A stretch of DNA of 44,952 bases from Craspedostauros australis (taxonomy: Eukaryota), in assembly GCA_030167865.1 (NCBI GenBank), contig JALAGF010005473.1, positions 62,001 to 106,952 on the forward strand, read 5' to 3'. Shown piece by piece: positions 1,497 to 44,951 of the stretch. How positions within the stretch are numbered: position 1 is the stretch's first letter; each line of letters begins with the position of its first letter. Both the position numbers and the translations under genes were made by a program. The notes under the pieces are model-generated. The model worked only from the letters and a program-made list of their open reading frames with translations. It made no database searches and was not told the origin of the DNA.

Positions 1497-2561
1497 AGCA
1501 TGCATGCATCGGTGCTTGTGTAGCTCGTACACATGCAATATCAATCGCAAAGACTAATCGCAGAGTGTTCTGCTCTGCTCTGCAGAGAAAGTAGAGAGTC
1601 GATCAATCAGGAATGTGGAGTATCTGTACCAGCACAGGAGTGTAATATTATATTATATTATTATATAGAATAATACGTACGAGTAAGATTCGCGAATGAG
1701 GCCTCTTCGAGGTTGATTGATGCTGCCTCGTCGCTGGGAATAGGCCGCACGAAGACGGCCCCTTGACGCACAAGCGAAGGCACAACACATGGGATGTGAT
1801 GGGTAGAAATCCGCCTTCTTTGCGCGCTTTTGATGCTAAGGGTTGGCAGCGCGCCTGTTGCTCTCCTCCCTTGAATTCGGAAAATGGATGTCCAGAGATG
1901 TCATTGGCGGAGATGACAGTACAGTAGTCGATTGAGTCGGTAACGTAGCTTGGATTCCTCCGAAACTGGGAAGAAATGGCGCGGCGCGAGGTCTGACATG
2001 GCGACATTCGAACTCTGTTCGCTTCGATTCCTGTGTTTGGCTCAAAACATGCGTCCGCCAAAATGGCGATTGCCAAAGTCGCGAGGGTGCGAAGAGAAGA
2101 GACCGTCCGCATTCCCACAACCAACAACAACTCGACACGCAGCATGCCAAACAGCGTCGTGTGCGCAGCGTCCAGTCTCTCCACACAACCTTTTCTTGCA
2201 CTCTCTCTTTTGGCACAGACTCAACAAGCACACAACAGTCTTGCTTCCTTCCAACAGAAGTACTCGCACTCAGAGCAGAGCAGAGCAGAGCAATACAGTA
2301 GTTCCTTATTGGCATCACACCAGGCTCATAATATAATTATAACACATTACATAATACTGTGATAGGTAGGAACAAAAAGGGGCGCAATACTTCGACGATC
2401 CATTGCACAAGTGTCGTCGAAGGAAGCGAAGCGCCAGGAACTGCATCAACAGCCGCGACTGCAACGCCACATACCGTTGGGTGTCATACGCATACTCGTA
2501 ATCGTAATCGCACCAGAGCACACCGCTCGAAAAGGAAGCGAAACGATCTGGGAATGCAGAG

Positions 2562-5500
2562 ATGATCCGCACAGGGAGCGGCAGGAAGTTCCAGCTCGAT
2601 CACACGCGGCCCAGGCACCGATTTGGGGGTGGCTCGAGGCTTGCCAAGGCGAAGCTTGCTGCCAAAGCTTCCGCGGCATCGCCCAAGACCGCCACGCTGG
2701 GAGACTACGGCTTCCTCACGCAAGAGCACGTGAATGGCGACACCGATGCGGTCGGCTACAGGCGCGATGGCAGCAGGGCAAGACGCAGTGCGAGTGAGGC
2801 GAATGGAAGCCACCGACGGAGGGACAGCGATGCGGACATCAGCCGACGGAAGACCGTGGCCAAAGCGCCGCATAGACGTGAACCAAAGAAGACCAGGGAC
2901 ACGAATCAATCAAACCCAGTAGAGATCGACAGCGAACGAGACCATCAGGACAATATTGACACCGAAAGCGACAGTGAGAGCGACAGCGAAAATGGCAATG
3001 CATACAAGTACACGCTGCCACATCATAGCGAAGACGGAGATGACAGCACTAGCGTGCAAGAGGTGGAGTCTCGTGATGGGTCTGATGCTCGGTCAGGTGC
3101 AGGTGCAGGTGCGTCCGATGCTGCTGTGGAGCAGAACAGCGCTGGGCAGCAACGCGCATCAATTCCAACCAGAGAAATCAGCAGCAAAGCAAAGCACCAA
3201 ATCAGAAAGGTCCGCAAGCAGGATGGTGATGGCGACAGCGACAGCGATCCTTCCGCAGATCTCAACCATCTCCTCCTGTCCTCGTCTTCGGAAGATGATG
3301 ACGAAGAAGACTTTGTGGATGCCAGTCCAACGCCGATGAGGAGAAGAACGCGCAGCTCGTATCAGTCAACTCTGGACTCGTTGGCAACCCTCACATCCAA
3401 AAGTTCAAATTCAAGGCAAAAGCTGCCATCCTCCAGACCAGCCGCACCGTCAAAGCATCCATCACCCAAGCGCCCGCGCCGCATGCGACAAAAGTCCATG
3501 TTGGAGGCACTTGCGGACTTCAACAAACCGCCGACGGTGCAGAAGGACGATGACAGCCCCGCTGAAAGCAGCGTTGCGGATGGCAGCAGCACGGCGAATT
3601 CACGATCGACACGGCGTAGAGCAGCCACCGTCGCAGCGCGCAACCGCATCAGATCGCAAAACGGTATCGATGAAATCGTCCATGCGCATTTGGGCCCCGC
3701 GGGTCCGAAGGTTGGCGATGATGATAGCGACGACGATGGTGACGACGATGGTGACGACGAAAGCGAGTTTGAGAACAAGAGCGACGATGAAGAGCATGAC
3801 ACGGATGACAATGGGCGTGCGGATGATAGCGATGCATTTGATTCCAAGCCTGCGTACAAGCGAAAGATGGCACCGCAAAAACAGCAGCAGCAGCGAGGAC
3901 ATCGTCGTCCAGAACGGACGAAGCGCACACGTCAACGACCGACACAAAACCGAGGCAAGCAATCAGTGGCCAAACAGCGCAGCAACAGCCACGGCAGTAC
4001 ACATTCGCATACAGACTCCAAGCTCAGCCGCAAAAGAGGCCATCATCGTGCACCAGCGGCCGCCGCAGCTGCAGCTCGTGATACCCTCACGATGACGAGT
4101 TCCAACAAGAATGGCCGCGACCGCGATCAGGACGCAATGCACTTGCGAAATTCTCGCAGAGCAGGTGTGCTCTCTGGGAACTCCAGACGTCAACTACAGG
4201 ATTCAGATAACGAAGATGACGACAATGATGATCCTGTGAATCGGAACAGATCCGCCACCAAGTCCCCTCGCAAACGACGAGCCGCGGCTGCCAAAGCGAC
4301 CAAACTCTTTTCGAAATTCATCGATGATGATGACGACGACGATGGCGATGATGATGCCGCCGAGGTGGAGAAGGTTCGTGCATCAGCCGATGCACGGCAA
4401 AAAAGTCCCAAAAAACCCAGCGACAACAACAAGAACAAGAACAAAAACAGCTTGCCATCTTCTGATGAAGAGTCTCTTCATGATGATCATCCGGTGGATC
4501 ATGACTCCGTCAGCAGCGGCAGCGATGACACGCACATGGACTACGACGAACATATCAATGGCGAAGATGACTACGACAACAGCAATAACAACGACGATGA
4601 CGACGACTCCAAGGATGAAGAATATGACGATGATGAGGAGGAAGAGGATGAAGTCACCTGGCTGAAGAATAATGTGGACGACGGTCCCGTTTTGAATGTG
4701 GACGACGAACAGATTGGTGACATGGACGACTCATCCTCGGATGATGACACCCGACGACGACCAGTGAGGAGAAAGCCCGCAGAACTTGAACTGCGGAAAC
4801 TACCGTTCTCCGGATCAACGAAAAGTGCAAAGAGTACGGAGAGCAGACGCAAGGCTGCAAGATCCACAAGGTCCGCAACGTCTTCGAATGGCCAAAAATC
4901 CATCCTCGATTCGTTTTCGAACAAGCGTAAATCTTTCTCCGCGTCAGCTGTCAGTGAAATACGCCCTACAGTACACGGGGAAGAATCGGACGGATTGAGT
5001 TCATCGGATTCCGATGCTGGTGTGAACGCCAAGCGCAGGAGTGTGGCCAATCGGAAGCGAAATGCTGGGCCACGCATGTCAAGACCAAGGCTTCCGCCCT
5101 GTCCGTCATCCATCGATTCCATCACGGCGGAACCCCTGCCGCACATGCACATATGCTTCATCCCACCAGACGGCAAGACGCGTCAATGCTTCGCCTTGGA
5201 CACGTTGCGAAAGATTGCCATCAAATCCAATCAGGGCGCAGCTCCGAAGTGGATGCAACCGCCTCATTTCCGAACGGAGCTTTCGGACGATATGCAGGAT
5301 CAGATCGCATCGCGATTCGGCAGGGAGGCGCTCGAGATCCATGGCGATTTTTACAGTCGGGAACGGCAACAACCGCTCCGAGGATTCATCGCCGAAGCTG
5401 ACGGGTCGATGAATGCCTTCGTGCAGCGCCGTCACAATGACGGCGATGATGACGATGCGTACGTCGCGAGCTCCATGAGTGACGAGACGTTTCAAGATCG

Positions 5501-6695
5501 GTTGGACAAGTACATGGACAATCAGATGGGCAGTCAAGATGTCTACTGTTGCCCCCTGTGCTACACCGAGATGCATCGAAAGGTTGCCAAGAATTCCATC
5601 ACCGCGTACTTTCGGAACAAGGGCGGCACCAAACAGAATCAACGAAGAAAAGCGTACAAGCAACGGCAGCGTGGTCACGATGGCAACAGTGATAGCGACA
5701 ACAGCAGCAACAGCAATAAAAGTAACAGCCAGGATGAAGAGAGCGAGATCGACGAAGAAGACGAAGTCGAGGAATCTACCTACGACCCCATGCTGGTTCT
5801 GCAGATCATGGACGACGAATATCAAATCGCCGGTGCCATTTGCAACACCAAGGTCGCCAACATCAAGCGCCATCTGCGAGAAGACCACAAAGTTCAAACC
5901 AAGGGCATCGAGGGAAACGATCTGTATGCGCGATACCGCATCCGAACGCAGGATGGTCTGCTCCAGCGCTGGCTCAAGAAGACGAAATCGCGCATCGGCA
6001 CATTCCAGGGCGACATGAGACGATACTGGAACGAAGGCAACAACCAGAACTTCCTGCTTCTGTTGGCGCGCGTGCAGGAGGCCGAGATGCATCGCAGGAC
6101 GCTGAAAATAGTGCGTTGCGGCGGTGACGACGACGAAGAACAGGCTCGACAGACCGCGTATGAATACTTGGTTCCCTCCGTTTCCTTTTGCCATTCAATC
6201 AAATCCCACAGCCGGACGGAGTGGAATCGCATCGCGGCACCGTTCCAACGCAGCTGGAGGGACGACATCCACGATTTCATTGTAACAAATACATCACATC
6301 TGGACGAAGAGGACGAAGTTCCGCACTTTGCCATGCGGCATGAGTTGGAAGCCCCTGGCGCAGAAGCATCTTCCCAATCCGAGAATGACGAGCTGTTTCG
6401 AAAACTGAAAAAGTACACGGAGCCGAAGCCAGACGATGACGATGACGAAGTGATTGAGATGGAGAGCATCGCAAGCCAAGAATTGAACGGATATTATTCC
6501 GAAGTGGAAGAAGAGAATGACTGGACCGCCAAACCGCAGAAACGACGACGACAACGACGACTACCACCACGCAAGAAGGAAAAGAAGAACAGGGTCGGAA
6601 AGCGGCTGGTGCGCAAACGCAAACCACGCAAATCTACTGCGACGGAGGTTTCGCCTGCAGCAAAGCGATTGCAGATTGCGGATGATAGCGATTAA
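2562..6695 (+). CDS. Large, mostly disordered acidic/basic protein (1377 aa) with a C-terminal folded region (U-box/RING-like segment and split C2H2-like finger); likely nuclear
   Basis: Uninterrupted 4.1-kb ORF with D/E/S tracts and K/R clusters (NLS-like). The folded-looking part contains DSITAEPL...QCFALDTL...PPHFRTEL and CCPLC...KRHLREDH. The gene is well supported; the function is inferred. Confidence 0.75.
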   Translation: MIRTGSGRKFQLDHTRPRHRFGGGSRLAKAKLAAKASAASPKTATLGDYGFLTQEHVNGDTDAVGYRRDGSRARRSASEANGSHRRRDSDADISRRKTVAKAPHRREPKKTRDTNQSNPVEIDSERDHQDNIDTESDSESDSENGNAYKYTLPHHSEDGDDSTSVQEVESRDGSDARSGAGAGASDAAVEQNSAGQQRASIPTREISSKAKHQIRKVRKQDGDGDSDSDPSADLNHLLLSSSSEDDDEEDFVDASPTPMRRRTRSSYQSTLDSLATLTSKSSNSRQKLPSSRPAAPSKHPSPKRPRRMRQKSMLEALADFNKPPTVQKDDDSPAESSVADGSSTANSRSTRRRAATVAARNRIRSQNGIDEIVHAHLGPAGPKVGDDDSDDDGDDDGDDESEFENKSDDEEHDTDDNGRADDSDAFDSKPAYKRKMAPQKQQQQRGHRRPERTKRTRQRPTQNRGKQSVAKQRSNSHGSTHSHTDSKLSRKRGHHRAPAAAAAAARDTLTMTSSNKNGRDRDQDAMHLRNSRRAGVLSGNSRRQLQDSDNEDDDNDDPVNRNRSATKSPRKRRAAAAKATKLFSKFIDDDDDDDGDDDAAEVEKVRASADARQKSPKKPSDNNKNKNKNSLPSSDEESLHDDHPVDHDSVSSGSDDTHMDYDEHINGEDDYDNSNNNDDDDDSKDEEYDDDEEEEDEVTWLKNNVDDGPVLNVDDEQIGDMDDSSSDDDTRRRPVRRKPAELELRKLPFSGSTKSAKSTESRRKAARSTRSATSSNGQKSILDSFSNKRKSFSASAVSEIRPTVHGEESDGLSSSDSDAGVNAKRRSVANRKRNAGPRMSRPRLPPCPSSIDSITAEPLPHMHICFIPPDGKTRQCFALDTLRKIAIKSNQGAAPKWMQPPHFRTELSDDMQDQIASRFGREALEIHGDFYSRERQQPLRGFIAEADGSMNAFVQRRHNDGDDDDAYVASSMSDETFQDRLDKYMDNQMGSQDVYCCPLCYTEMHRKVAKNSITAYFRNKGGTKQNQRRKAYKQRQRGHDGNSDSDNSSNSNKSNSQDEESEIDEEDEVEESTYDPMLVLQIMDDEYQIAGAICNTKVANIKRHLREDHKVQTKGIEGNDLYARYRIRTQDGLLQRWLKKTKSRIGTFQGDMRRYWNEGNNQNFLLLLARVQEAEMHRRTLKIVRCGGDDDEEQARQTAYEYLVPSVSFCHSIKSHSRTEWNRIAAPFQRSWRDDIHDFIVTNTSHLDEEDEVPHFAMRHELEAPGAEASSQSENDELFRKLKKYTEPKPDDDDDEVIEMESIASQELNGYYSEVEEENDWTAKPQKRRRQRRLPPRKKEKKNRVGKRLVRKRKPRKSTATEVSPAAKRLQIADDSD

Positions 6696-11841: not shown

Positions 11842-13596
11842 CTACGGCTTTTCTGGTTCTTCCGCTTTGGCCTTGTCGCTGCTGTCTCCTTCTTCCTCCT
11901 TGTCTCCTTCCTTTTTGGCGTCGTCACCATCGCTGGTGTCATCGCCAGTGGCTTCTTTTTCCTCAGCCACTACTTCCTCCGAAACTGCGGCTGCTTCGTC
12001 TCCTCCTGCTTCCTCTACTGATGTGGATTCAGCGGCACTCTCCGCATCGTCAGTATCTTCTTCGGTATGCGCTGCTTCCGCCGCCTTTGGTTGCGGCGCC
12101 GGGGTCGGTGGCGCACTGCCCCAGGCCTCCGTGGCACCATGCTTGGTCTTCTGAATCCAGGCACCCTGGACACCTTTGTACAAGGTCTCTGCGAGACCGC
12201 GCTTCTGCCTCCAGGCCACGTGGGTGACCTCATCCTGCGTGGCGACTCGGAGCTCCCCATCCTGCTCGACGACGGTGTTTTCGGTGGATCCGTTCTTGTA
12301 GGTGGTGATGCGACGTCCCTTCTTGCGTAGGGCGCGCGTGTCGACGAGTTGTGCGACGTACTTGAAGCGATCGCGCTTGTCGCCGTCCGCGCTGGATTGC
12401 GGGTAAGGGATGGGGTCGCCATTATCATTGTCCTTGTTGGTGTTGGGCGTGGCCGCCAACCGCTCCTTGTTTTCGAGCAGCTTGCGCACGACGCTGGGAT
12501 CGGTCTTGACGGGCACCACCGCCTCATCGACGTCCTCCTTGTAAGTGTGATTGTTGAGGATGAGCTGAGCTTCCTTGGCATCGCGGTGGTTGGCCTGCTC
12601 AAGCTTCTGCTCGATGTCGAAGATATCGTCCGTTCTCTGCCACTTGTAGGAGGTCTCGTCTGGTTCGCCGAGACCATGGATGCCAACGGGATTCTCGACG
12701 AAACGCTCGGGCGCGACCGTGAATTGGGACTTGTAAGCATCCTTGATGTTCTGCATGATCTGCTTCTCGGCGTAGTCGGCCTGCTCCTCGCAGAGCAATT
12801 CCGGGTTGTTGCGGCGCATCTGCTCTTCCTCGTGCTGCAGCTGGATGATGGCCGCCGCACGCGATGCCGTGATGCTGTGCTTCTGCGCGATGATCTTGAC
12901 GACGTACTCGTGCGACGTGGCGTTGTGGCTCTCGTGGCTGCGCATCATCATATCGATGTACTGCACGTACATTTGACGGCTGGTCTTCTGGTCGATCCAG
13001 CCGAGCGTGATCATGGCATCCTCGTAGGTGGAGAACTCCTCATCCCACGTGACGGCGGGACGGTTGGCAAAGTCCTCGGCGCTGATGACCTTGGAGTTGG
13101 GATTGAATGCGGGTCTGTAGAGCGGGTCTTTGCGCTCGGGATCCCATTCGCCTGGAGACAGCGTCGCTGTGACGAAGGGTTGCTTTGGCTTGCCAACGTC
13201 CAGGTCTTCATCAGCGCCACCTCCCGCTGAGGTTGGTGGCGGTGGCGATCCTCCTGGGCCTCTTCCTCTTCCTTTGTTGTTGTTGTTGCGATTATGCCAT
13301 CTTGGGTTGAAACTCTTTCCCCGAATGTTGTTTCTGTTGCCATTGTTGCCATTGTTGCCATTGTAGTTGTTGTTGTGGTTGTTGTTGGATCTTGACCTGG
13401 GTGGCACATTCGAGGAGAAAGAGCGCAATGCTTGCGTTTGCCCCTCCGCCTGTGCCTGCGAAGACACGACAGACGCGGCTGGAGATGCGGCCATGGCTGC
13501 GGATGCGGATGCGGATACAGGCACATGCCCGAGCTGCTTCGTCAGCACAGCCCGGGAGGGGCTGCGGATCGCGCTGCGGATCACCTTGCGAAACAT
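11842..13596 (-). CDS. Mitochondrion-targeted protein, probable mitoribosomal small-subunit mS45/Bot1-like
   Basis: 584-aa ORF with an Arg/Ser/Ala-rich presequence ending ...ALRSFSS. The segment RQMYVQY...VKIIAQKHSITASRAAAIIQLQHEEEQM resembles the helix-turn-helix core of the Bot1p/mS45 family. Acidic C-terminal tail. The gene is secure; the family call is tentative. Confidence 0.6.
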   Translation of the reverse strand: MFRKVIRSAIRSPSRAVLTKQLGHVPVSASASAAMAASPAASVVSSQAQAEGQTQALRSFSSNVPPRSRSNNNHNNNYNGNNGNNGNRNNIRGKSFNPRWHNRNNNNKGRGRGPGGSPPPPTSAGGGADEDLDVGKPKQPFVTATLSPGEWDPERKDPLYRPAFNPNSKVISAEDFANRPAVTWDEEFSTYEDAMITLGWIDQKTSRQMYVQYIDMMMRSHESHNATSHEYVVKIIAQKHSITASRAAAIIQLQHEEEQMRRNNPELLCEEQADYAEKQIMQNIKDAYKSQFTVAPERFVENPVGIHGLGEPDETSYKWQRTDDIFDIEQKLEQANHRDAKEAQLILNNHTYKEDVDEAVVPVKTDPSVVRKLLENKERLAATPNTNKDNDNGDPIPYPQSSADGDKRDRFKYVAQLVDTRALRKKGRRITTYKNGSTENTVVEQDGELRVATQDEVTHVAWRQKRGLAETLYKGVQGAWIQKTKHGATEAWGSAPPTPAPQPKAAEAAHTEEDTDDAESAAESTSVEEAGGDEAAAVSEEVVAEEKEATGDDTSDGDDAKKEGDKEEEGDSSDKAKAEEPEKP

Positions 13597-14698
13597 GACT
13601 CGTTTGGCTCCAATAGCCTTGGCTATCTTGATGGCTGTCGTGATGGTTGTGTTCGTCGACAGTGTGGTACTTGTTCACCAGAAAGGGCCAGCTGTGTATA
13701 ATAGATTATTGGTACATGCGATACAGGCACTGCAACGATGTGAAGAGACGGGATGTCGTACTCTCTCTCTCTCTCTCTTTGTCTCTGTTTGTCTCCTTGC
13801 GTGTGTGCGTGTCTCCGATCCATCAACATGCTCTCCTCCACCACCAAGCCCACAAAACTCGTGTCGCCACCACCACACATCCCCGCCTGTCTTGTTTTCG
13901 CTGAGCACATCCTGGATTTATAAATGGCATGTACTTGGTCTTACCTGAAGCAATCCACAGTAATCAACATTTATAAAGTATGTCCCTCTTCCGCTGAAGG
14001 CTTTGAGAGTACCTTGATTCCGATGGATCGCGAGCAATACCTCAGGTGGAGACGTTATTCAGACGTTAACCGATTGGGGAGTTGTGTTAGGCCGCAAACG
14101 CGCGAGCCGTGCGACTATTGCAATTCGGGTGGCTCCCTGGAGTCACGTTCCCTTGGTGAAACACGCATGCCCTTCCACGCTGAGACATTTTGAATCCCAA
14201 CAGAGAACAAGACAAAAAAGAATCACCTGTTTCCGCCCAACGTCGGCCGATTTCTCGTATCGCACAAGAAAAACAACAGCGGCGACGACCACGCCCATAC
14301 TCGTACGTACGATCGGATTATAACAGCAACATGCTCTCCATGGTACGAGTGTGTGTAAGAGGACAGCAGTTTAAAGAGAGCACATCCGGACGATGAACTC
14401 GTATCATGCATCGGTAGCATTGATGCCATCCATGTCATTGATTGCAAGAAGCGACGAAGAGCGCTGTTGGCAGTGAAAGAACAGCATGATTGGTGATAAC
14501 TAACGAAACGTTCATGGATCCTTTCCCACCGTTCCAGTTTGTGAGCACACGCGATCGGGGACTGTGATCTCCTCCCGTCCGCGATCACGTCCACTGATTC
14601 CCAACCGTAGATTGGTAAAGTTGCATCCACCTTGAAGGGACCGAGACCTTCGTGCGTTCATCAGCATCATTCTCACAGCAGCGACGACGACGACCACC

Positions 14699-22375: not shown

Positions 22376-23791
22376 TCATCGCTCACATGACAACAACTGG
22401 TTTGACAGCTGCAGGATCTCAAAAATCAAATGCGCCTGCTTCGACGGGCGCAACCGCGCCATGACATGAGCGATCGAGGCCATCTCACGACGTTGCAATA
22501 GCTGGATCACCACCGGCCACACCTTGTTGCGATATTGATTCAATCGAAATACCTGCTCCATGTCATAGTACTGGATATTCAACGACACCCACGCCTCGGG
22601 AAGTTTCAACGAGGTCAGCGTCCGGTTGCGACGCACGGCGTCCAAGATGCAGCGACCCGTTCGCTCGCGATCGATGACAGCCGTGTTCGCGTCGTGCACC
22701 TTCAGCTTGTGCAATCTGGTATGCCGCAGCAACGCCAGCAGCGATGGCACCGAACAGCGGATGTCCAAGCCAACAAGCGTGGGATGTTGCGCGATGATTT
22801 CGCAGATGTGCAGCGGCATGGTGGTACCGAGTACGGACACGCAAAATAGCATTTTGGCCGCCATGAAGGCGTCGGCGACCAGGTCCATGGGAAGTTCGTC
22901 ATCGTCGACTTCGAATATCAGCGCGGTCAATCGGGCGGGTGTCGTCGAGCTGACCATGGGCTGCAAGAATGCCGTGGGGCTTGATAGATTCTTGGTCGAG
23001 ATGGCAAGGTGCTCGTGCTGCATCAAACGTGCGGTGGTCGCAGCATCCATGCGCGCGGAGCAGCCACGGAGGTTGAGTTCCTGGAAGGAGGCATTCTCGA
23101 ATTGGCTGAACGCTTTGATGAAGATGTGAGATGAAATCTCCAGGCGCACCGTTGCACTGACCGGTGCGATAAGCATCATGAGGCCAGTGAGATGTGCGCG
23201 GATGGCGGACCATGCTGCAATAGCATTGGTCGTGCTGTTGTTGTGCGTGGCAACGTGAATGCCGTTGCAACAGCAGTGGTGGTGCAAATGCGAGGGCCTC
23301 GCTCTGCCTGTGGTGAAGGTGAGCAGACCAACCCGGAGTTCGGCGTACAGGTACCCGCCCGCACCCCGGATGCGCATGGCGAGGTCGTTCCAGTCGTATC
23401 CGCGCCGGTGCAGCGTTTGCCAGTCGTCGACTTGGAGCTCCCGCAGTGCGGTGTTTCCGTAAGACGCAGGCGGTCGCTGCTGGTCGTATCTTTGGCAGCT
23501 TTCTCCGAATTTGGCGCGATCGCAATTCGTTAGCTCATCCCAGATGCGCTCGAAGCGTTCGTCGACGTCGTTTGGTTGGCCCGCACGTTCGCTTGCAGCT
23601 GAGTCTGCCGCCTCCACTCTGCGTCGTTTGTTGTTGCTGTTGTTCCCGTTGTTCCCGTTGGGTGAGGTTGCTGGCGAGGATACTGCGGATGAAGCTGGGA
23701 CCGACGTCGAAGCTGGCTCTGCTGCCGTCTCCGATTCTGTTGGCAGGGACGCAGCAGCGGCGCCATCCTCTTCTGCTCTCCGCTTCGACAT
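22376..23791 (-). CDS. Putative RNI-like/leucine-rich-repeat protein
   Basis: 471-aa ORF with an NLS-like KRRR and degenerate LRR-like units (FQELNLRGC, LVGLDI, LHKLKV, LDAVRRNRTLTSLKL) followed by a ...RLNQYR...IFEIL cap. Confidence 0.6.
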   Translation of the reverse strand: MSKRRAEEDGAAAASLPTESETAAEPASTSVPASSAVSSPATSPNGNNGNNSNNKRRRVEAADSAASERAGQPNDVDERFERIWDELTNCDRAKFGESCQRYDQQRPPASYGNTALRELQVDDWQTLHRRGYDWNDLAMRIRGAGGYLYAELRVGLLTFTTGRARPSHLHHHCCCNGIHVATHNNSTTNAIAAWSAIRAHLTGLMMLIAPVSATVRLEISSHIFIKAFSQFENASFQELNLRGCSARMDAATTARLMQHEHLAISTKNLSSPTAFLQPMVSSTTPARLTALIFEVDDDELPMDLVADAFMAAKMLFCVSVLGTTMPLHICEIIAQHPTLVGLDIRCSVPSLLALLRHTRLHKLKVHDANTAVIDRERTGRCILDAVRRNRTLTSLKLPEAWVSLNIQYYDMEQVFRLNQYRNKVWPVVIQLLQRREMASIAHVMARLRPSKQAHLIFEILQLSNQLLSCER

Positions 23792-24257
23792 TGCGTCCGC
23801 GTATCGTGCTACTCGTATGTATGGTACGGCCTACTCTGCCGACTTGCAGATGCGACGCAAGGAGCGGACGGCAACCAAGTCAAAGCGAAGTAAGATAACA
23901 ATAGTGATAGTGATAGTGATAGTGATGAAGGGATGAGACTTGTCCTGCTGAGAGCAACTTGCATCACAAGGGATTTGGATCTTTTTGTGATCGCATTCTC
24001 TGCATTACTATTTGGATCGTGGATTCCAGAACAACACGTTTCTCCCACGATTCGCAAACACCTCATCGATCCCCACTGTCCACACTCTGGCAGTTCCATG
24101 CTGAACTCACTGTGAAGGGCATGAAAGATAAATGGAGAACTGCTGCACAACTACCGGAACTCATGCTCGATGGGTGCTTCGGCAACGCCAGGCATCAACC
24201 GCAGCAGGAATGCTAGCATGTATTGTAGAATATATTGTTGAGCATGGAGTGATAGTT

Positions 24258-28324: not shown

Positions 28325-30611
28325 CTACATCTTCACCCCCTTGGCTGCCAATGCTTGCAGTTCGAACATCCGGCTCCTCATCTCATTTACGGTGTCGTTG
28401 TACGTATCGCCATCCTTGTTGAGATCCACCTCCTCAAAGGGATCCACCTGCAGATCGAATAGCTGCTCGAGATCGTGCTGCGGCCATTGGATGAACTTCT
28501 TGTCCTTCCGAACGAGCGCGTAGTTGGTGGGGAAATGCACAGGACCCGCAACCCACTCATAGAAGAATTCCTGCCGCCAAGACTGCTTCGTCGGTCCTGG
28601 ATTGAGATAGAGCTGAGCCAAGTCGCTGCCTTGCATCACCTCCGGCACTTTGATCTGCGCGGCGCTGAGTATTGTCGGTGCCAGATCAATGTTCAATGCA
28701 AACTCGGACACTTTGCCCCCTCGTTCTGCCTTCGACAACCGCGGATCGAGGACAATGAGTGGCACTCGCAGTGATTCCTCGTAGGCGTACCATTTCTCTG
28801 CCAATCCATGTTGGCCTGGGTATGCGTGTATGCGCGTGTTCGTGTTGCGCACAGTGGAAGCGATGCATCACAGAGTGGAGCAGAATGACAAGACAAGGGT
28901 ACGAAGAATGGTCAAAGGACACAGCAAAGCTTATGTGAGTGGCGGTGAAACGTGCATTGTCAACAATTCGAAGTTCCTGCAGGGAACAGATGCTCCTGTC
29001 TTATTATACATACCATGGAAGTTGCCATTGTCTGTGTGTAGGTACCAGTGCATAGGTTATGTCAGTTTTGGAGGAGAGATATCACGTGATCGTATCGAAC
29101 GGGTTTAGAATGTTGTGAGATGTGGGAGAACGTCACATGCCGGCAACAGCATGGAGCACTCCATTTGATTGCAACACATGTGAAATGGGATGCACCACGA
29201 TATGATACGATGCGATCGATTTCTCACTGGATGCGTGTTGTCGTTCCAGCAGATTTCCAGTCTGGATTACCGATCATCATTCATGGCAAAAGCCAACGAT
29301 GAATCCAGCGCACAAACGTTTGCCAATCGTCTCTATGGGTTTCATCTGTTATCGTTGCTGCACCTGTCACCGCAACCACGCAACCGCAACAGCAACAGAA
29401 TCATTGATGACAGCCCCCGCCCCCAACTTACCTGTCGTGAATATCACGAGCGTCTCGTTGAGCACGCCTTGCCGTTCCAGCTCATCGATCACCCGACCAC
29501 ACACGGCATCAACTTCGCTTGCCATGCGGTACATGTTCTTCATCATCAGTTGGAACTTCTCTTCGGGATAGTACCGTTTCAGTGCCCTGCCACGAGGGAA
29601 CGTCTGTCTGCTGGACAGGAACTTGGGCAGGGCATCGAGATGCTCTTGCGTGAATGTCTTGGGACGCGGGACGCCCGTGTTGGCGTAGATCCACATGCTA
29701 GAGTTCATGGGTCGGTACTGCTCGGGACTCCCGTCTTCAGCATGCGTGGCAAAGAAGCTGATCGTAAGTGCGAATGGCTGATCGTTGGGCCGGTTCCGTA
29801 AGAACTCCATGCCATCGATTTCATTCCATTCGGTGATGTGTTTCAGTACACGATTGCGCTTCTTGTAATGCGATGATTGGTAGGATATGAATTCATCAAA
29901 CGTTGGCACCGTCTGGGGCGGACCGTTATGATGCCATTTGCCGAATAAGCCGGTGTAATATCCGGCCTTTTTGAGTTGTGGAAAGAGCGTGTGGCTCCAG
30001 TTGTCACCATCGAACATGGTGATATTGTTATAGCTCTCGCGTGTTCTATGCCTTGCGAGGTACTGGCCAGTGTAGAGCGACGCTCGGCTGACCATGCAGA
30101 TGGACGTGGTGACGCAGCTGTGCGTGAAGAGCGTGCCGTTGCGTGCCATCTCATCGAGACGCGGCGTCTGGATGTAGGTGTTGCCAAGCGCACCAAGCGA
30201 CGTGTAACTCCAGTCGTCTGCATAGAGCAGTACAATGTTGAGCGGCTTATCCACATTGGCGGATTGGCCCTCTCGTTGCTGTTGCTCCTGCTGTTGCTCC
30301 TGCTGTTGGTGCGTTTCTGTTCTGCTTCTTGCTTGTCTCTTTTCGGCATCCTTCTGTTGGTCTCTGTTGTCATTGTTGATGCTATCACTATTACCAACGT
30401 TGTGGTATGCGTTCTCTTCATCCGCAAGAATGTCTTCCAACGGAGTCACAGATTGCTTCGAAAGCATCGCTGATGTGCTGAAGGCATTGTGACCAATGCT
30501 GATGGCACAGACGCAAAGGAATGCCACCAAGATGAGGTTGTTGCGTTTCTTCAGTTTCTCATCGTTGCGTGCAATTTTCTTTGCGCTCGATGACGATGCT
30601 GGTGGGGCCAT
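28325..30611 (-). CDS. Formylglycine-dependent (S1) sulfatase with N-terminal membrane anchor; 3 exons including an 18-nt microexon, 562 aa
   Basis: Exons 30611-29432, 29031-29014 and 28815-28325. Introns 29431-29032 (GTAAGT...CACAG) and 29013-28816 (GTATGT...CCCAG). Motifs [66 protein letters not shown] and LFDLQVDPFE. Confidence 0.92.
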
Positions 30612-31971
30612 CTTTTAACGAGTATAATATGATCTGATCCGATCTGATCTGAATTGCTTGGCCCGGCTGGGAGCGAAGTGCAAGTCCTACGTAGATGGAT
30701 GTGATGAGATCACCACCGATGGGACCTCTTGCATCCAAAAGTCTGGGAGTATTCGTCGTTCGATCTCAAGCAAGTTGGAACCAAGGGATCAACTAGCAAT
30801 CATGCCAGCGAAATGGAACGATAAGTCTTGGCTTCAGATTCACAACGGAACGCGTTTGAACGGAAGTGACAATGATGCTGCTGCGGCTGATGCTGATGCT
30901 GATGCTGATGCTGACAATGGAGACCAGTCAATCGATCTTTGGCGATGCGCTTTTTCGTTTTGTGTCGTTTTCAAGTTTCTGTTTGGGGCATGCGGTAAAT
31001 AAACATTTGCTATCAGACTATTGAAATGTACAATTGAGTTAGACTCAACCGACCACTTTGTTTCGTCCGACATTGCTCAAATCATGCGGACACATTTTGG
31101 AAGGCTGTTCGTTGTGGCGTCCGAGCAACAGGAATCGTGTTGGTCCATTGCGCAACACAAAAACTCTCGAGTCGGTGCGTTGACGTGAAGAAATGTCTCG
31201 AAAAGACAGTCACACCAAAGCAAACGTGATTTTCGCCGAAGATCTACGAAGGGTGCCAGCGAACAGCTGGTTCCAGTTTGGGCCACATTTGAACACCGAA
31301 GAACAACAGGGATTGCGAATTTGAGTGGTGTGGTTTGCGACGTTTCGGTCCCTAACCCGCGAGGACGATTGCGCGAGATGAAACACCAACAGACAACCAC
31401 AGAAAGGCACCAAACCACCACCGCCACAAAAATGCTTCAGTTGCGTCGACCACAACCATCAACAATACCGAACAACACCAGCGCTGCGTGCACCAACACA
31501 AAGAGAGAGAGAGAGAGGAACGGTGCAGGCGCAAAGATCTCCGAAGAAGGCCAAGACTTGTTTGTGAGTACCAGCCACCATACTCGTACTTAGACTGTTC
31601 ATTTCGGTTCTCCGATGTTCCGCATCGACATCGTGGTATCGTGGGCACGTTTGATGCGATCTGCCGAACAACATCGTGTTCCCACCCATGCCGCAACGAG
31701 CACAGCTATCTCCTTCCTCCCACGTCCCCACAGTCATCGCCACCGTCGCCGTCGCTGCTCTGCCCCTGTCCAACTTTCCCTCTCGTCCCTCACAAATTGA
31801 CAAAAAACAAACATCGTGCAACCTATCCACATCACTCAATCGTAACCAACAAGCAGCAAACTGCGACCGCCATCACAGCTCAAAGCACAGTCCAGAAAAG
31901 CTCAGATCACGCCTGCAACTGCAGCTGCAACCGTAACTGCAACCTCGACAACTACTACGACCACATCCAAC

Positions 31972-32850
31972 ATGCCATCAGTACGACAGCCTCGAACTTT
32001 GTTTGGTGCCTCTTCGCCAGGAACCACAGACGGAGCCTACGGGCCATCGGCGCAGACGCTGAAGTCGCTGGACTCTCTGCAGGATGATCTGGACATCCAA
32101 ACCATGAAGTTCATGGAGTTCACAAGGAAGGAGCAGAAAGAGATCTTCCTCCACAAAGTCAAGGAGCTGTCATCCACCGAGATCGTGGAGAATGCAGTGC
32201 ACGTCGGCGAGAGGATAGGTCACTTCCATGCAAAGGACAAGGACGACAGGACGGTGCGATCGTCAAGTCTTCTTTCCGATGGTCCATTGGTCGTTGTCTT
32301 CTTCCGCGGCGATTGGTGCACGTATTGCAACCTGGCACTGCGCTCGCTGCAGAAGGTGCTGCCAGAAATCCATGCCAAAGGGGCTTCGCTGGTGGCAATC
32401 ACTCCACAATCGCACCGCAAGCTCAAGCGGCGCCAGGGCAAGTCATCATCATCGTCGTCATCATCATCGTCATCGGCACAATCAATGGACACGCAATTCC
32501 CCATCCTCTGCGACGAGGACAATTCCATCGCCAAGCAGTTCCGCATCGCTTACGACCTCGACCCGGTCATCCGCAAGCTGTACTTCGACTGGGGCATCGA
32601 CGTTTCGTCGTTCAACGAGGACGGTTCTCACACATTGCCGTTGGCTGCAACCTACGTAGTCGACAGAGATGGCACCGTCCTTTACTCCTACGTCGATTGC
32701 GCACCGAACAAACGTGCCGAGCCGACGGAGATTTTGAATGCCATCCCGAACTACCAAAAATCCAAGCGGCACGGCATCCGGTACATCATGAGATCGAAGC
32801 TGCGTGCCATCGCTGCCCCGTTGATCAAGGGACGCATGAGAGTCCATTGA
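31972..32850 (+). CDS. AhpC/TSA peroxiredoxin-like (thioredoxin-fold) protein, copy 1
   Basis: GPLVVVFFRGDWCTYCN, GASLVAITPQ, FPILCD, LPLAATYVVDRDG and RAEP; intronless 292-aa ORF. Confidence 0.9.
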   Translation: MPSVRQPRTLFGASSPGTTDGAYGPSAQTLKSLDSLQDDLDIQTMKFMEFTRKEQKEIFLHKVKELSSTEIVENAVHVGERIGHFHAKDKDDRTVRSSSLLSDGPLVVVFFRGDWCTYCNLALRSLQKVLPEIHAKGASLVAITPQSHRKLKRRQGKSSSSSSSSSSSAQSMDTQFPILCDEDNSIAKQFRIAYDLDPVIRKLYFDWGIDVSSFNEDGSHTLPLAATYVVDRDGTVLYSYVDCAPNKRAEPTEILNAIPNYQKSKRHGIRYIMRSKLRAIAAPLIKGRMRVH

Positions 32851-34217
32851 TGTACCATGATCATTCGCTTATCCGAAGCGGGTTGACCTGCCCTGGGGAT
32901 GTGTGGGTCACCCTCTTGTCGGAAGGCGTACTATATGTCATGGGTTCCGTGGTCGTCAAAGAATGTGCGATGCCAGAGTGGAAGAATGCAACCAAGCACA
33001 TTGCAACGTTGTATAATACCAGTGAGACAGCCGCAACAAGAGCATTCCCGCAGGCCACGGGTACGACGGTTGGTATGACGCAGGTAATGGCAGGCAACAT
33101 AATTCTACGATTTCGCTGCGCTGATGACAACACTCAGCTCTTCTCTGCTCCGCTCTAAAGAAAGTTGACCCCGACACCCATTCTATTTGAGCACTACACA
33201 ACTTGCAAATCACCAAGGGGAGCCTCCCAGTCATGTAGCAGCGCAGCCATCATTTAGGCAATGCTAAGGCAATACCATCACCATTTTGTCCGTGAAGTTT
33301 CCCCGCTTGCGCTTTAATTTTAGAATAAACTTTGGTGAAGAACGATCTGCAACAACCATGGGGTCTCTTGCGTCTGTCCCATCTCTCTCTTGCGTCGCTC
33401 GGTTGCTCTGCTTCACTGCCAATACCAACTGCCCATTGGATTGCTTGTGAACACGTCCTGCCCGTGCCATCTTTCCATCAGCAAAGACTGAATACTGTAC
33501 GAATGGCGAGAAGGAGTAATCGTGGAATAGCATTCTACGTGATCTCATCATCCTCTATCGCATGCTGGTGGTGGAAGCCGGCTCTGAGCGGAAATGCCTT
33601 GTATCACATGGAGTGAAGGTGTTCCACCTCCTTCCCACGATGGTGTCCTGGTTGCAGAACCACGTAAAATGACAGGGACAAGGAAGTTGGTCTGTCGGGG
33701 TCATCGCTGACCCTGCTCACGCAGTTTCGTCCAAGAGGTCATGGTCGCCTTGCTTGTCTGTTTGTCCGTGATTGCACGGGATAAAAACGCTCCTTGTTGG
33801 TCCAACGGCCTTTTTTGGGCTCGTTGATTGGATCACTGTCGCAGAAGTCTTCACAGAGAGGTGTTTAGACGTACAACTGCGCGCTTCTTCTTTGTTCTGT
33901 CGTTCTGTGGCACATTCTGCACCCCAGCAACAGACATAGTAACAAGATCGGGGAGACTGCGCACGTGGTTGTTGTTGGTTGTCGCGATGGTGCTCTTCTC
34001 CATCCATCACCTTGCCACCCATAAATCGCATCATTCACCATCCATCATCAGCAATCCATTTGACACTACCACTGCCACCGTGCGAGTGCCCGTATCAGTA
34101 CTACAAGCAATACAAGCAAAACAGACACCATCCAACACTAACAATACTATCATTATATCTCTGTGTCTCTGTGGAGAGAGAGAGAGAGAGAGCACACAAC
34201 ACTCCATCGACACAAGC

Positions 34218-35024
34218 ATGATGGCAAAATCCGATGATGTCTACGATAGCCCCGCCGGATCTTCAACCACCACATTGAAGATGATGGATTCCCTGCAAGA
34301 CGACCTCGACCTGCAGATGATGGCCTTCATGGACATGACCAGCAAGGAAGTCAATGACGTCTACGCCCAGAAGATCCAGGAACTTGCCGCAACCGAGATC
34401 GTCGAGAATGCCATCCAGATCGGCGATCGCATGCCGGGCTTCAAGGGCAAGGACGAGAAACACCGGATCGTGCGCAGTTCGGAGTTGCTGGCGAAAGGCC
34501 CGCTCATCATCAGCTTCTTCCGTGGTGACTGGTGTCCCTACTGCAACATAGAGCTGGAACGATTGTCGAAAGTCCACTCCGACATCTTGGCACGCGGTGC
34601 CACCTTGATCGCGATCTCTCCGCAGTCGCATGACAAGATGAAGCAGCATCAGAAAGAGACGGGGGTGCTCCAAAAGTTCCCCATCGTCTGCGACGAGACG
34701 ATGTCCATTGCCAAGAAATTCCGCATCGCTTTCGAATTGGATCCCATCCTCAACACGATGTACTTGGGCTGGGGCATTGACTTGGCGTCGGCCAACGCCG
34801 ATGGTTCCACCATGCTGCCGCTGGCTGCGACGTACGTGATCGACCAGAGCGGCACGGTGGTGTATTCATTCATGCATTGCGCACCCAGCCAAAGGGCGGA
34901 GCCAGTGGACATTCTCAATGCCATACCGCACAATCCCAAAGCAAAGACGCGACAGCGGTTCACCTTGCGCTCGAGGTTGCAGAAACTCCTGCCGAACATT
35001 TCGCGGACCAGCCGCGCATCCTGA
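34218..35024 (+). CDS. AhpC/TSA peroxiredoxin-like protein, copy 2 (268 aa)
   Basis: GPLIISFFRGDWCPYCN, GATLIAISPQ, LPLAATYVIDQSG and RAEP. Start placed at ATG 34218 by alignment with copy 1 (shared TLKxxDSLQDDLDxQ); the upstream extension of the ORF runs through a GA microsatellite. Confidence 0.9.
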   Translation: MMAKSDDVYDSPAGSSTTTLKMMDSLQDDLDLQMMAFMDMTSKEVNDVYAQKIQELAATEIVENAIQIGDRMPGFKGKDEKHRIVRSSELLAKGPLIISFFRGDWCPYCNIELERLSKVHSDILARGATLIAISPQSHDKMKQHQKETGVLQKFPIVCDETMSIAKKFRIAFELDPILNTMYLGWGIDLASANADGSTMLPLAATYVIDQSGTVVYSFMHCAPSQRAEPVDILNAIPHNPKAKTRQRFTLRSRLQKLLPNISRTSRAS

Positions 35025-43361: not shown

Positions 43362-44951
43362 TCAATCCCATTCTTGCTTCAGCTTCTCCAACAGCTCATC
43401 CCACGACTTCACTTCGTCAAACAACCGATCCATGTCAACACTGCAAAATTCGCGCTTTTCGTACGCGATGCGTTGGAACGATGCTCGATGCGCCGCTTCG
43501 CCATCAGGCGAGGCGTACAACTCTGGCATCCATTTCTTCTCGATGGCAAGTGACATGTCGAGAAAGTCTTGAAGTTCAGTTTTCGTCGGGCATTTGAGCG
43601 GAAGATGAACCCTGGTCTTGTTGAGCGTTTCTCCGAAGTATTTTGCCAAATCGGTGGCCACCCCTGAGCGGATCTTGTTGGCCTGCATCTCCGCACTTAT
43701 GATGCTGCGATTGGCAGCTTCGAACACAATTCCGTTGAAGGTGTACCATTCCATGTCGCGAACGTTCTGGTGACGATCCCGCTCCTTGTTTTGCTTAGTT
43801 TTGCAGGCCTTGGGAGCATCTGGGATAGCGTCACAGAGCAGCTGCTCGCTCAGATCGCGTTGGGAATAAAGATTCATGACGTGGACGGGGAAGCCTGCAT
43901 TCCTCCACATCTGAATGGCGCCATCCATGAAGATAAAGATGCCAGCAATCGTCACCTTCTCGTGCTGGCCGTTGGGAACCGTTGTATTGGATTCGACCCA
44001 TTCCTGAATCATCTTCCAGGTGTCATCGTACGATTCCCCGCCATCAGAAGGCCATCGGCGGCACAGGGCGTCTCCCATCTGCGTCTTCATCCCGTTGTAC
44101 TGCTTCATGCTGCTGAGCATCCATTCGAAGGTACGCCTGTAAGTCACGACAAAGGACACGTTCCAATCTTGCAGCACGTGCTTGAAGACCCGAAAATAGA
44201 GCGGATGAGTAAAGACCCCGCCTGCCTCCAAGAGCATCTTGTGAGACCACCGTTCGTCGCTGAGAATCAGAGACAAGCCGTCGTTTTTCAATGCGCGCAG
44301 CACCATTCTCGTGTTTTTCATGCATCGCGGGAGCGCCGGCGAATACAAGAAAGCGGAAACATCCGTGTTGCTTGAGTTCGTGGATAGTATCCGATTCTCT
44401 TCCTCTTGCAGGACGGTGGCCGAACGGGACATGCAGCTTTCGTCGAATAGATTGTTGGCGTTCCGCATCTCGAGGCCTTGGTACAATTCTCTCGCGTGGC
44501 CTTTTCCAACGTAGGTGTAATTATCTTTGGCAAGGTCGTGGAAGGTTTGCAGATACTGCATGCGACGTTGGAGAGTCGTGGAGGCCGTCTTGGATGGTCC
44601 GACGTGGACGATGAGACGTGGCATCGTGCTCGCTGGTGCGGATGTCGCTCGTGGATGAGTAGGAGCAGCAGTGGCCGGTGCCGGTTCCATCGTGTTCATC
44701 GCCGAGACTTCGTGCACCTCAATGGGCATCCCCGCCTCCATCTCCGCGATGGGATCTTCCGGAGGAATGGAGTCGGGGCCCCAGTACAGAATGGATGACA
44801 TGAAAAACATGGATATTTGGAACAGCACGAGGAGGACGAGGAGCTTCGTCGTCGGCCGAGTCCGCTGCGGCGTGCCTTCGTTTCCATTGCTTGGGCGATG
44901 TCCACCGACCGTTGTATTCGTTCGAATGGGATTGATTTTGTTGTTGGTGCT
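43362..44951 (-). CDS. Sulfotransferase-like type II membrane protein, 5'-truncated by the window edge; paralogue of the gene at 3-1496
   Basis: The frame is open to the window end (...RPTTKLLVLLVLFQISMFFMSSILYW is a TM segment). Motifs IVHVGPSKTASTTLQ, LILSDE, VVTYRRTFEWMLS, LPLKCPT and FCSVD. Confidence 0.7.
   Translation of the reverse strand, partial: STNNKINPIRTNTTVGGHRPSNGNEGTPQRTRPTTKLLVLLVLFQISMFFMSSILYWGPDSIPPEDPIAEMEAGMPIEVHEVSAMNTMEPAPATAAPTHPRATSAPASTMPRLIVHVGPSKTASTTLQRRMQYLQTFHDLAKDNYTYVGKGHARELYQGLEMRNANNLFDESCMSRSATVLQEEENRILSTNSSNTDVSAFLYSPALPRCMKNTRMVLRALKNDGLSLILSDERWSHKMLLEAGGVFTHPLYFRVFKHVLQDWNVSFVVTYRRTFEWMLSSMKQYNGMKTQMGDALCRRWPSDGGESYDDTWKMIQEWVESNTTVPNGQHEKVTIAGIFIFMDGAIQMWRNAGFPVHVMNLYSQRDLSEQLLCDAIPDAPKACKTKQNKERDRHQNVRDMEWYTFNGIVFEAANRSIISAEMQANKIRSGVATDLAKYFGETLNKTRVHLPLKCPTKTELQDFLDMSLAIEKKWMPELYASPDGEAAHRASFQRIAYEKREFCSVDMDRLFDEVKSWDELLEKLKQEWD

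Follow-up and report, generated by a model that had tools for sequence, protein, structure and literature searches.

We analysed a window comprising a 44,952-nucleotide (nt) stretch of contig JALAGF010005473.1 from Craspedostauros australis, and all coordinates below are positions in that window. Its minus strand carries two large open reading frames (ORFs) that together encode most of an S1 sulfatase, and between them sits a candidate microexon of 18 nt that encodes part of the calcium site of the enzyme. The gene so assembled would consist of three exons separated by two introns (Table 1).

Table 1. Features of the sulfatase gene, in window coordinates.
Feature	Position	Strand	Description
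Exon 1	29432..30611	minus	ATG at 30611-30609; 393 codons plus 1 base; ends ACAG/GTAAGT
Intron 1	29032..29431	minus	400 nt, phase 1, GTAAGT...CACAG; branch-like CTGAC at 29065-29061
Microexon	29014..29031	minus	18 nt; codes (D)NGNFH(G), the Asp-Asn calcium ligands and a conserved Gly
Intron 2	28816..29013	minus	198 nt, phase 1, GTATGT...CCCAG
Exon 3	28325..28815	minus	2 bases, 162 codons and a TAG stop at 28327-28325
Predicted N-terminal hydrophobic anchor	30480..30536	minus	residues 26-44 (LILVAFLCVCAISIGHNAF); top 19-residue Kyte-Doolittle mean 2.18
First calcium-binding pair	30213..30218	minus	Asp132-Asp133 (..LLYADDW..); invariant columns in alignment A1 (D144 and D145 of P0003)
Catalytic-site motif	30084..30098	minus	C-M-V-S-R, Cys172..Arg176; Val where the published pattern has Pro/Ala

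The microexon reads ...tacacacag/ACAATGGCAACTTCCATG/gtatgtataa... on the minus strand, where slashes mark exon boundaries. Exon 1 ends ...ACGACAG/gtaagt at 29432, exon 3 is entered through cccag/GCCAACATGG at 28815, and both introns split a codon after its first base (G/AC and G/GC). The 18 nt are flanked by AG and GT and keep the frame of both neighbours, as an internal coding microexon must. When the three pieces are spliced in silico they give a product of 562 amino acids (aa); leaving out the middle piece gives 556 aa that read VIFTTGQHGL at the join. These junctions and products bear out an earlier note on this DNA, which had described cacag, the 18-mer and gtatgt at 29031-29014 (correct in every detail), the in-frame fusion of the two large ORFs as VIFTT-G-QHGL without D-N-G (the core calcium pattern finds no match in the skip product), and a symmetric pair of phase-1 introns around an exon of 18 nt, so that skipping it would stay in frame. 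The ACAG that precedes the intron 1 donor recurs as the last four bases of that intron, so the unspliced DNA, read in frame across the acceptor, gives T-D-N-G-N-F-H-G. On account of this repeat (29429-29435 and 29032-29035) we considered a target-site duplication for intron 1 and dropped it, as beyond the obligatory AG it amounts to two bases, expected by chance about 1 time in 16.

Profile searches reveal a gap that the microexon fills. Exon 1 matches the Pfam Sulfatase profile (PF00884) with an E-value of 4e-31 over profile positions 2-238 of 301, and on its own reaches 108.9 bits where the cut-off is 25, which places it in the S1 sulfatase domain family. The same profile resumes in exon 3 at about position 250-254 and runs to 301, so columns are missing between the two ORFs. 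Exon 3 also matches SGSH_C (7.5e-25; 88.3 bits against a cut-off of 29.3). We then enumerated all in-frame, stop-free mini-exons of 3-150 nt bounded by AG and GT in the 616-nt gap, 20 candidates in total, and used a profile built from 88 relatives to score the spliced product of each. The 18-nt exon ranks first of the 20 with 673.5 bits, followed by a runner-up at 651.1; the product that skips any such exon scores 642.7 bits, 30.8 fewer than the inclusion product, and takes rank 10 of 21. The residues of the 18-nt exon fit the homologues better than any alternative splice solution does. A strict pattern of 18 nt, consisting of AG, Asp-Asn-Gly codons, 7 nt, a His codon, G and GT, was found in 0 of 20,000 dinucleotide-preserving shuffles of the gap, and its single occurrence on the two strands of the whole window is the microexon itself. 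A very loose pattern (AG/AC-AAY/CAY-GG, with the first slash marking the boundary and the second separating alternatives) occurs in 163 of 20,000 shuffles.

Homologous proteins carry the same residues at the same place. A first protein search with the catalytic part of exon 1 as the query returned 1826 matches, the best 120 of which (216-688 aa) were listed and aligned with the spliced product. Among these 120, 106 span the junction and every one of the 106 has seven residues there, 36 of them exactly DNGNFHG and the remainder D-N-G-x-x-x-x variants; none of the 106 is skip-like, and the other 14 end or diverge ahead of or inside the segment. The closest match listed, P0003, a Stauroneis-type record, is 76% identical, comes from an MMETSP diatom transcript and has all seven residues identical. 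P0003 is derived from a transcript, so a close relative encodes in its mature mRNA the very residues that the microexon would supply here. A later search agreed, with the full segment in 120/120 longer relatives and 0/120 skip-like, in a set that includes annotated models from Seminavis robusta, Mayamaea pseudoterrestris and Fragilaria crotonensis, and D-N-G stands at this place in all 200 fetched proteins of at least 440 aa. In the reverse direction, tblastn with P0003 as the query covers 30539-29433 (exon 1) and 28822-28328 (exon 3). Both ORFs are unbroken, and together they run collinear with full-length relatives, beginning at Met-Ala-Pro and continuing to the C-terminus. A collinear mini high-scoring segment pair at 29035-29012 appears with 4 of 5 orthologue queries, these short pairs being individually non-significant. 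The idea that the 18-nt exon restores the D-N-G signature, also put forward in the earlier note, is upheld by this homology, by the segment in 106 of 106 spanning relatives and by the first rank among mini-exons.

The residues in question belong to the metal site. In formylglycine-dependent sulfatases the calcium ligands are described as Asp13, Asp14, Asp317 and Asn318 in AtsA numbering, and the second calcium signature, derived from 4058 sequences, is given as ..T-S-D99-N61-G99 (PMC5066984). The microexon supplies Asp394-Asn395-Gly396 of the 562-aa product, and the earlier assignment of its Asp and Asn as ligands of the active-site cation matches the calcium role reported for AtsA Asp317 and Asn318 in the same source. 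The core of the signature, ..[STGA]-D-[NHQ]-G, matches LVIFTTDNG in the inclusion product and nothing in the skip product, so that it is found only with the microexon; the leading [ND]-[TSA] of the full pattern is unmatched, the protein having N-E-T there. The first calcium signature is represented in exon 1 by its Asp-Asp pair, the full published pattern failing at the next residue, Trp. At the catalytic site, the updated PS00523 pattern C/S-x-[PA]-x-R (PMC5066984) finds its Cys172 and Arg176, and its sole mismatch is the Val at the [PA] position; a pattern relaxed there matches. This position holds V, Q, I, M, T or A among relatives, and Ala in 6hr5 (C-A-A-S-R). The sequences indicate that the Val is a family trait and not a defect of this gene, formylglycine formation at the motif being putative.

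An AlphaFold model of the orthologue P0003, computed from a 40-sequence alignment (mean predicted local distance difference test score 80.6, predicted template modelling score 0.78), places a central strand at residues 399-405, followed directly by D406-N407-G408, a short helix and a lower-confidence loop. The closest solved structure is 6hr5 (E-value 3.9e-64 over P0003 residues 126-560), in which the DNG is aligned at the same point.

Upstream of the catalytic domain, the hydrophobic segment near the N-terminus lies between a stretch rich in Lys and Arg on its N-terminal side and a low-complexity spacer rich in Gln and Glu. The P0003 model has a helix at residues 24-38 and disorder from 42 to 102. 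The hydrophobicity of residues 26-44 and the helix in the orthologue agree with the membrane-anchored product that had been proposed, and the layout is the one seen in secretory-pathway enzymes with a type II anchor, a topology that we infer from the sequence and the model. The best solved-structure match, 6hr5, is listed under the SulfAtlas subfamily S1_25 in PMC9096561, where another S1_25 enzyme is described as taking a 3-O-sulfate off fucose; the S1_25-like label used here comes solely from that one match. The product of the window gene and 6hr5 agree in where Asp-Asp, Cys..Arg and D-N-G stand, and neither has Pro in the catalytic motif. Those S1_25 enzymes come from bacteria, lack introns and are either soluble or modular, whereas the window gene belongs to a eukaryote, is interrupted by two introns, has Val in the motif and encodes a predicted anchor and a disordered spacer. 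By analogy, the closest characterised relatives would be S1_25 exo-sulfatases with 3-O-sulfated rhamnose or fucose as their target, which may indicate the substrate here, and the trimming of sulfated deoxyhexose polymers is a reasonable guess at the role. The locus would then add an anchored S1_25-like sulfatase to the candidate editors of the sulfated fucose and rhamnose polymers that diatoms secrete.

Taken together, we conclude that the 18 bases at 29031-29014 are very probably a true microexon, internal and coding, in a minus-strand S1 sulfatase gene of three exons from a diatom-like organism. The sequence, the reading frame, the homology and the statistical excess over chance support this. 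In the mechanism we propose, the spliceosome would remove a 400-nt and a 198-nt phase-1 intron, both with canonical GT..AG ends and with the consensus-like donors GTAAGT and GTATGT, and the microexon would supply the second calcium-binding signature directly after the central beta-strand of the catalytic domain. Because the microexon carries that signature, a functional mRNA must include it, and constitutive inclusion would be the expected default in this organism. Several observations weigh against this picture. The polypyrimidine content ahead of the acceptors is modest (0.53 and 0.47), a clear branch-like motif is present in intron 1 only, and the same two-intron arrangement was seen in no relative, as judged from the tails and heads of ORFs in 120 and 99 matches. 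In Phaeodactylum tricornutum about 20% of genes are reported to undergo exon skipping (PMC5859163), which speaks against constitutive inclusion in particular, and with Val in the catalytic motif, activity is not guaranteed even though the variation is family-wide.

The same 20% figure favours a reading in which the exon is a regulated cassette, with 29432 sometimes joined to 28815 to give a membrane-anchored protein short of two of its four calcium ligands, which would be an inactive or glycan-binding isoform and hence a switch of activity, as the earlier note had suggested. The exon has the formal properties of such a cassette, with a length divisible by 3 and the same phase on both sides, so that a skip would stay in frame and escape premature-stop surveillance. 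One protein, P0160 (195 aa, from a 747-nt contig), is without the five residues N-G-x-x-H at this place and reads IFTTD-----GAHGL, while its nearest relatives, P0222 (81% identity) and P0163 (59%), keep the motif as IFTTDNGMFHG. In P0160, however, the Asp is still present and five residues are gone, whereas a skip here would lose the Asp and six, which makes it a different event; P0160 could represent a splice variant, a true deletion or a faulty assembly, and it is the sole motif-less form among 339 proteins fetched. The absence of skip-like forms in both sets of relatives (0/106 and 0/120) argues against the switch, as do the consensus-like donors, which favour efficient inclusion, and the 616-nt splice that a skip would need, diatom introns being described as small (PMC5859163). 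Overall, we consider regulated skipping distinctly improbable, although if it did occur it would be a clean natural case of an enzyme switched off by removal of its metal site. A bolder version, in which introns have gathered round the D-N-G codons of diatom S1_25-like sulfatases so that a tiny exon can be dropped to leave a dead, anchored glycan-binder, with P0160 as a first glimpse of it, seems to us a still longer shot.

Retention or slow removal of the flanking introns might instead regulate the gene, the unspliced forms being truncated or degraded. Retention is described as the commoner alternative form in P. tricornutum, ahead of skipping and at about 24% of genes (PMC5859163), which counts for this possibility and against a cassette. 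A transcript that kept intron 1 would meet a stop after 414 residues, and one that kept intron 2 after 426. In plants, a detained intron is reported on one or both sides of over 72% (50/69) of constitutively spliced microexons (PMC8831610), but this pattern may not transfer to diatoms, and we regard regulation through retention as unlikely. Finally, the 18-mer might be no exon at all. The locus would then be a gene in decay, one broken into two separate ORF products or a pseudogene, with the motif left as a relic or arising by chance. The protein collection does hold only the 103-aa P0123 for the 3' part of the gene, and the same microexon is absent from the other genomes scanned, which were prokaryotic contigs that gave one chance bacterial match. 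Against this stand the intact ORFs, which match full-length relatives in order from end to end, the seven residues identical to the closest orthologue, the canonical splice sites in the right phase, the 0 of 20,000 shuffles and the first rank among 20 mini-exons, which leave this explanation very little credibility and the constitutive microexon as our preferred reading.

The positions of introns in related genes provide a context for this microexon. We located them from metagenomic ORF predictions that extend across an exon-intron boundary in either direction, which leaves tails and heads on the predicted proteins. On the donor side, among the best 120 of the 1826 matches, nine proteins (P0032, P0042, P0043, P0045, P0050, P0059, P0064, P0069 and P0094) read DNG/VS or DNG/VR, corresponding to a GTAAGT-type donor after the Gly codon, and seven (P0009, P0012, P0025, P0028, P0029, P0037 and P0046) read AEK/C[KEA], corresponding to a donor one base into a Trp codon. 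Two further relatives with tails that mark an intron, P0098 and P0026, account for one HG/GEF and one LDKT/VS. The FTT/G read-through expected of the window gene was found in 0 of the 120. The acceptor side was covered by 99 matches of a further search. There, P0157 passes from junk to homology at ..K/DNGNFHAEHGL.., at or adjoining the intron 1 site of the window gene, and has no second intron; homology in P0168 begins just before YYHG, P0173 has a 28-residue insert ahead of IFTS, and in P0142, P0148 and P0186 homology begins inside the Trp codon. From these tails and heads we infer that introns occupy no fewer than five distinct positions in a span of about 25 codons round D-N-G in related eukaryotic sulfatase genes. 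Introns may have been gained or have slid unusually often in this region, as in a local hot spot, and the window's pair of introns, 18 nt apart, appears so far to be unique among relatives. A degenerate 24-nt pattern made of the microexon and its donor gave one match in prokaryotic genome contigs, with about 0.54 expected. We set that match aside as chance; it has the exact 24 nt and lies at 1022-1045 on the plus strand of L001, a contig of a gammaproteobacterial metagenome-assembled genome, antisense to a small unrelated ORF beside gyrB.

Two further observations concern the introns themselves. Within the window neither intron has repeat or introner-like copies, the only matches being 13-nt chance ones, and no Rfam family was found in or around them, the whole window being without anything at gathering score. 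A weak match to the C/D-box small nucleolar RNA GlsR14 lies in intron 2 (28897-28968, minus strand), with 22.2 bits against a gathering score of 90 and an E-value of 0.0087 for an 851-nt search; it shows no convincing C or D boxes by eye and is probably a chance match.

The existing protein record is consistent with a gene that has not been modelled whole. The only entry from the window itself for this gene is P0123, whose 103 aa span 28325-28633 on the minus strand and start at the first Met inside exon 3, and no protein from the window that covers exon 1 is among the best 120 of the 1826 matches. This one fragment, and the lack of an exon 1 protein among those matches, give circumstantial support to the earlier expectation that gene predictors would probably miss the exon. 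Without the 18-nt exon, the gene would be modelled either as fragments or as a protein minus two of its four calcium ligands, and a gene so mis-modelled would be scored inactive or overlooked.

Microexons of this kind are well described in plants, and a full-text literature search on diatom microexons gave one paper, on an unrelated subject. Plant microexons that gene finders miss or misannotate are reportedly also the subject of MEPDB. Like plant microexons, the window exon is internal, very short and bounded by canonical splice sites, and it encodes a conserved motif; it can be recovered by homology and is absent from P0123, the sole database protein seen for this locus. In animals, neuronal and other regulated cassette microexons are short and preserve the frame, and their inclusion alters a functional surface. 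The window exon is likewise short and frame-preserving, but diatoms are not expected to have the animal regulators. It also differs in carrying ligands of the catalytic site, so that its exclusion would most likely kill the enzyme and not tune it. Conserved coding microexons that gene finders miss or misannotate have been described at scale in plants, in a study that deals mainly with exons of at most 15 nt backed by RNA sequencing and that also mentions the regulated in-frame cassette microexons of animals (PMC8831610); by comparison, the case in the window is diatom-like, 18 nt long and known from sequence alone. The locus is a fresh instance of a known phenomenon, useful for annotation and unsurprising to a specialist, and homology-guided recovery of microexons, as practised in plants, would probably improve diatom gene sets.

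Elsewhere in the window, most genes look intron-poor, so the two-intron sulfatase gene stands out locally. Just upstream of it, on the opposite strand, two neighbouring ORFs (31846-32850 and 33828-35024, plus strand) both match the peroxiredoxin-type AhpC/TSA family (5.1e-21 and 3.9e-25) and resemble a tandem pair. Other ORFs in the window match DUF1604, an EamA transporter, a histidine phosphatase and AAA_16/TPR. Long open frames of up to 1395 aa, including 2508-6695 on the plus strand and 11842-13674, 22376-23830 and 43362-44951 on the minus strand, have no Pfam match at an E-value of 0.001 or below.

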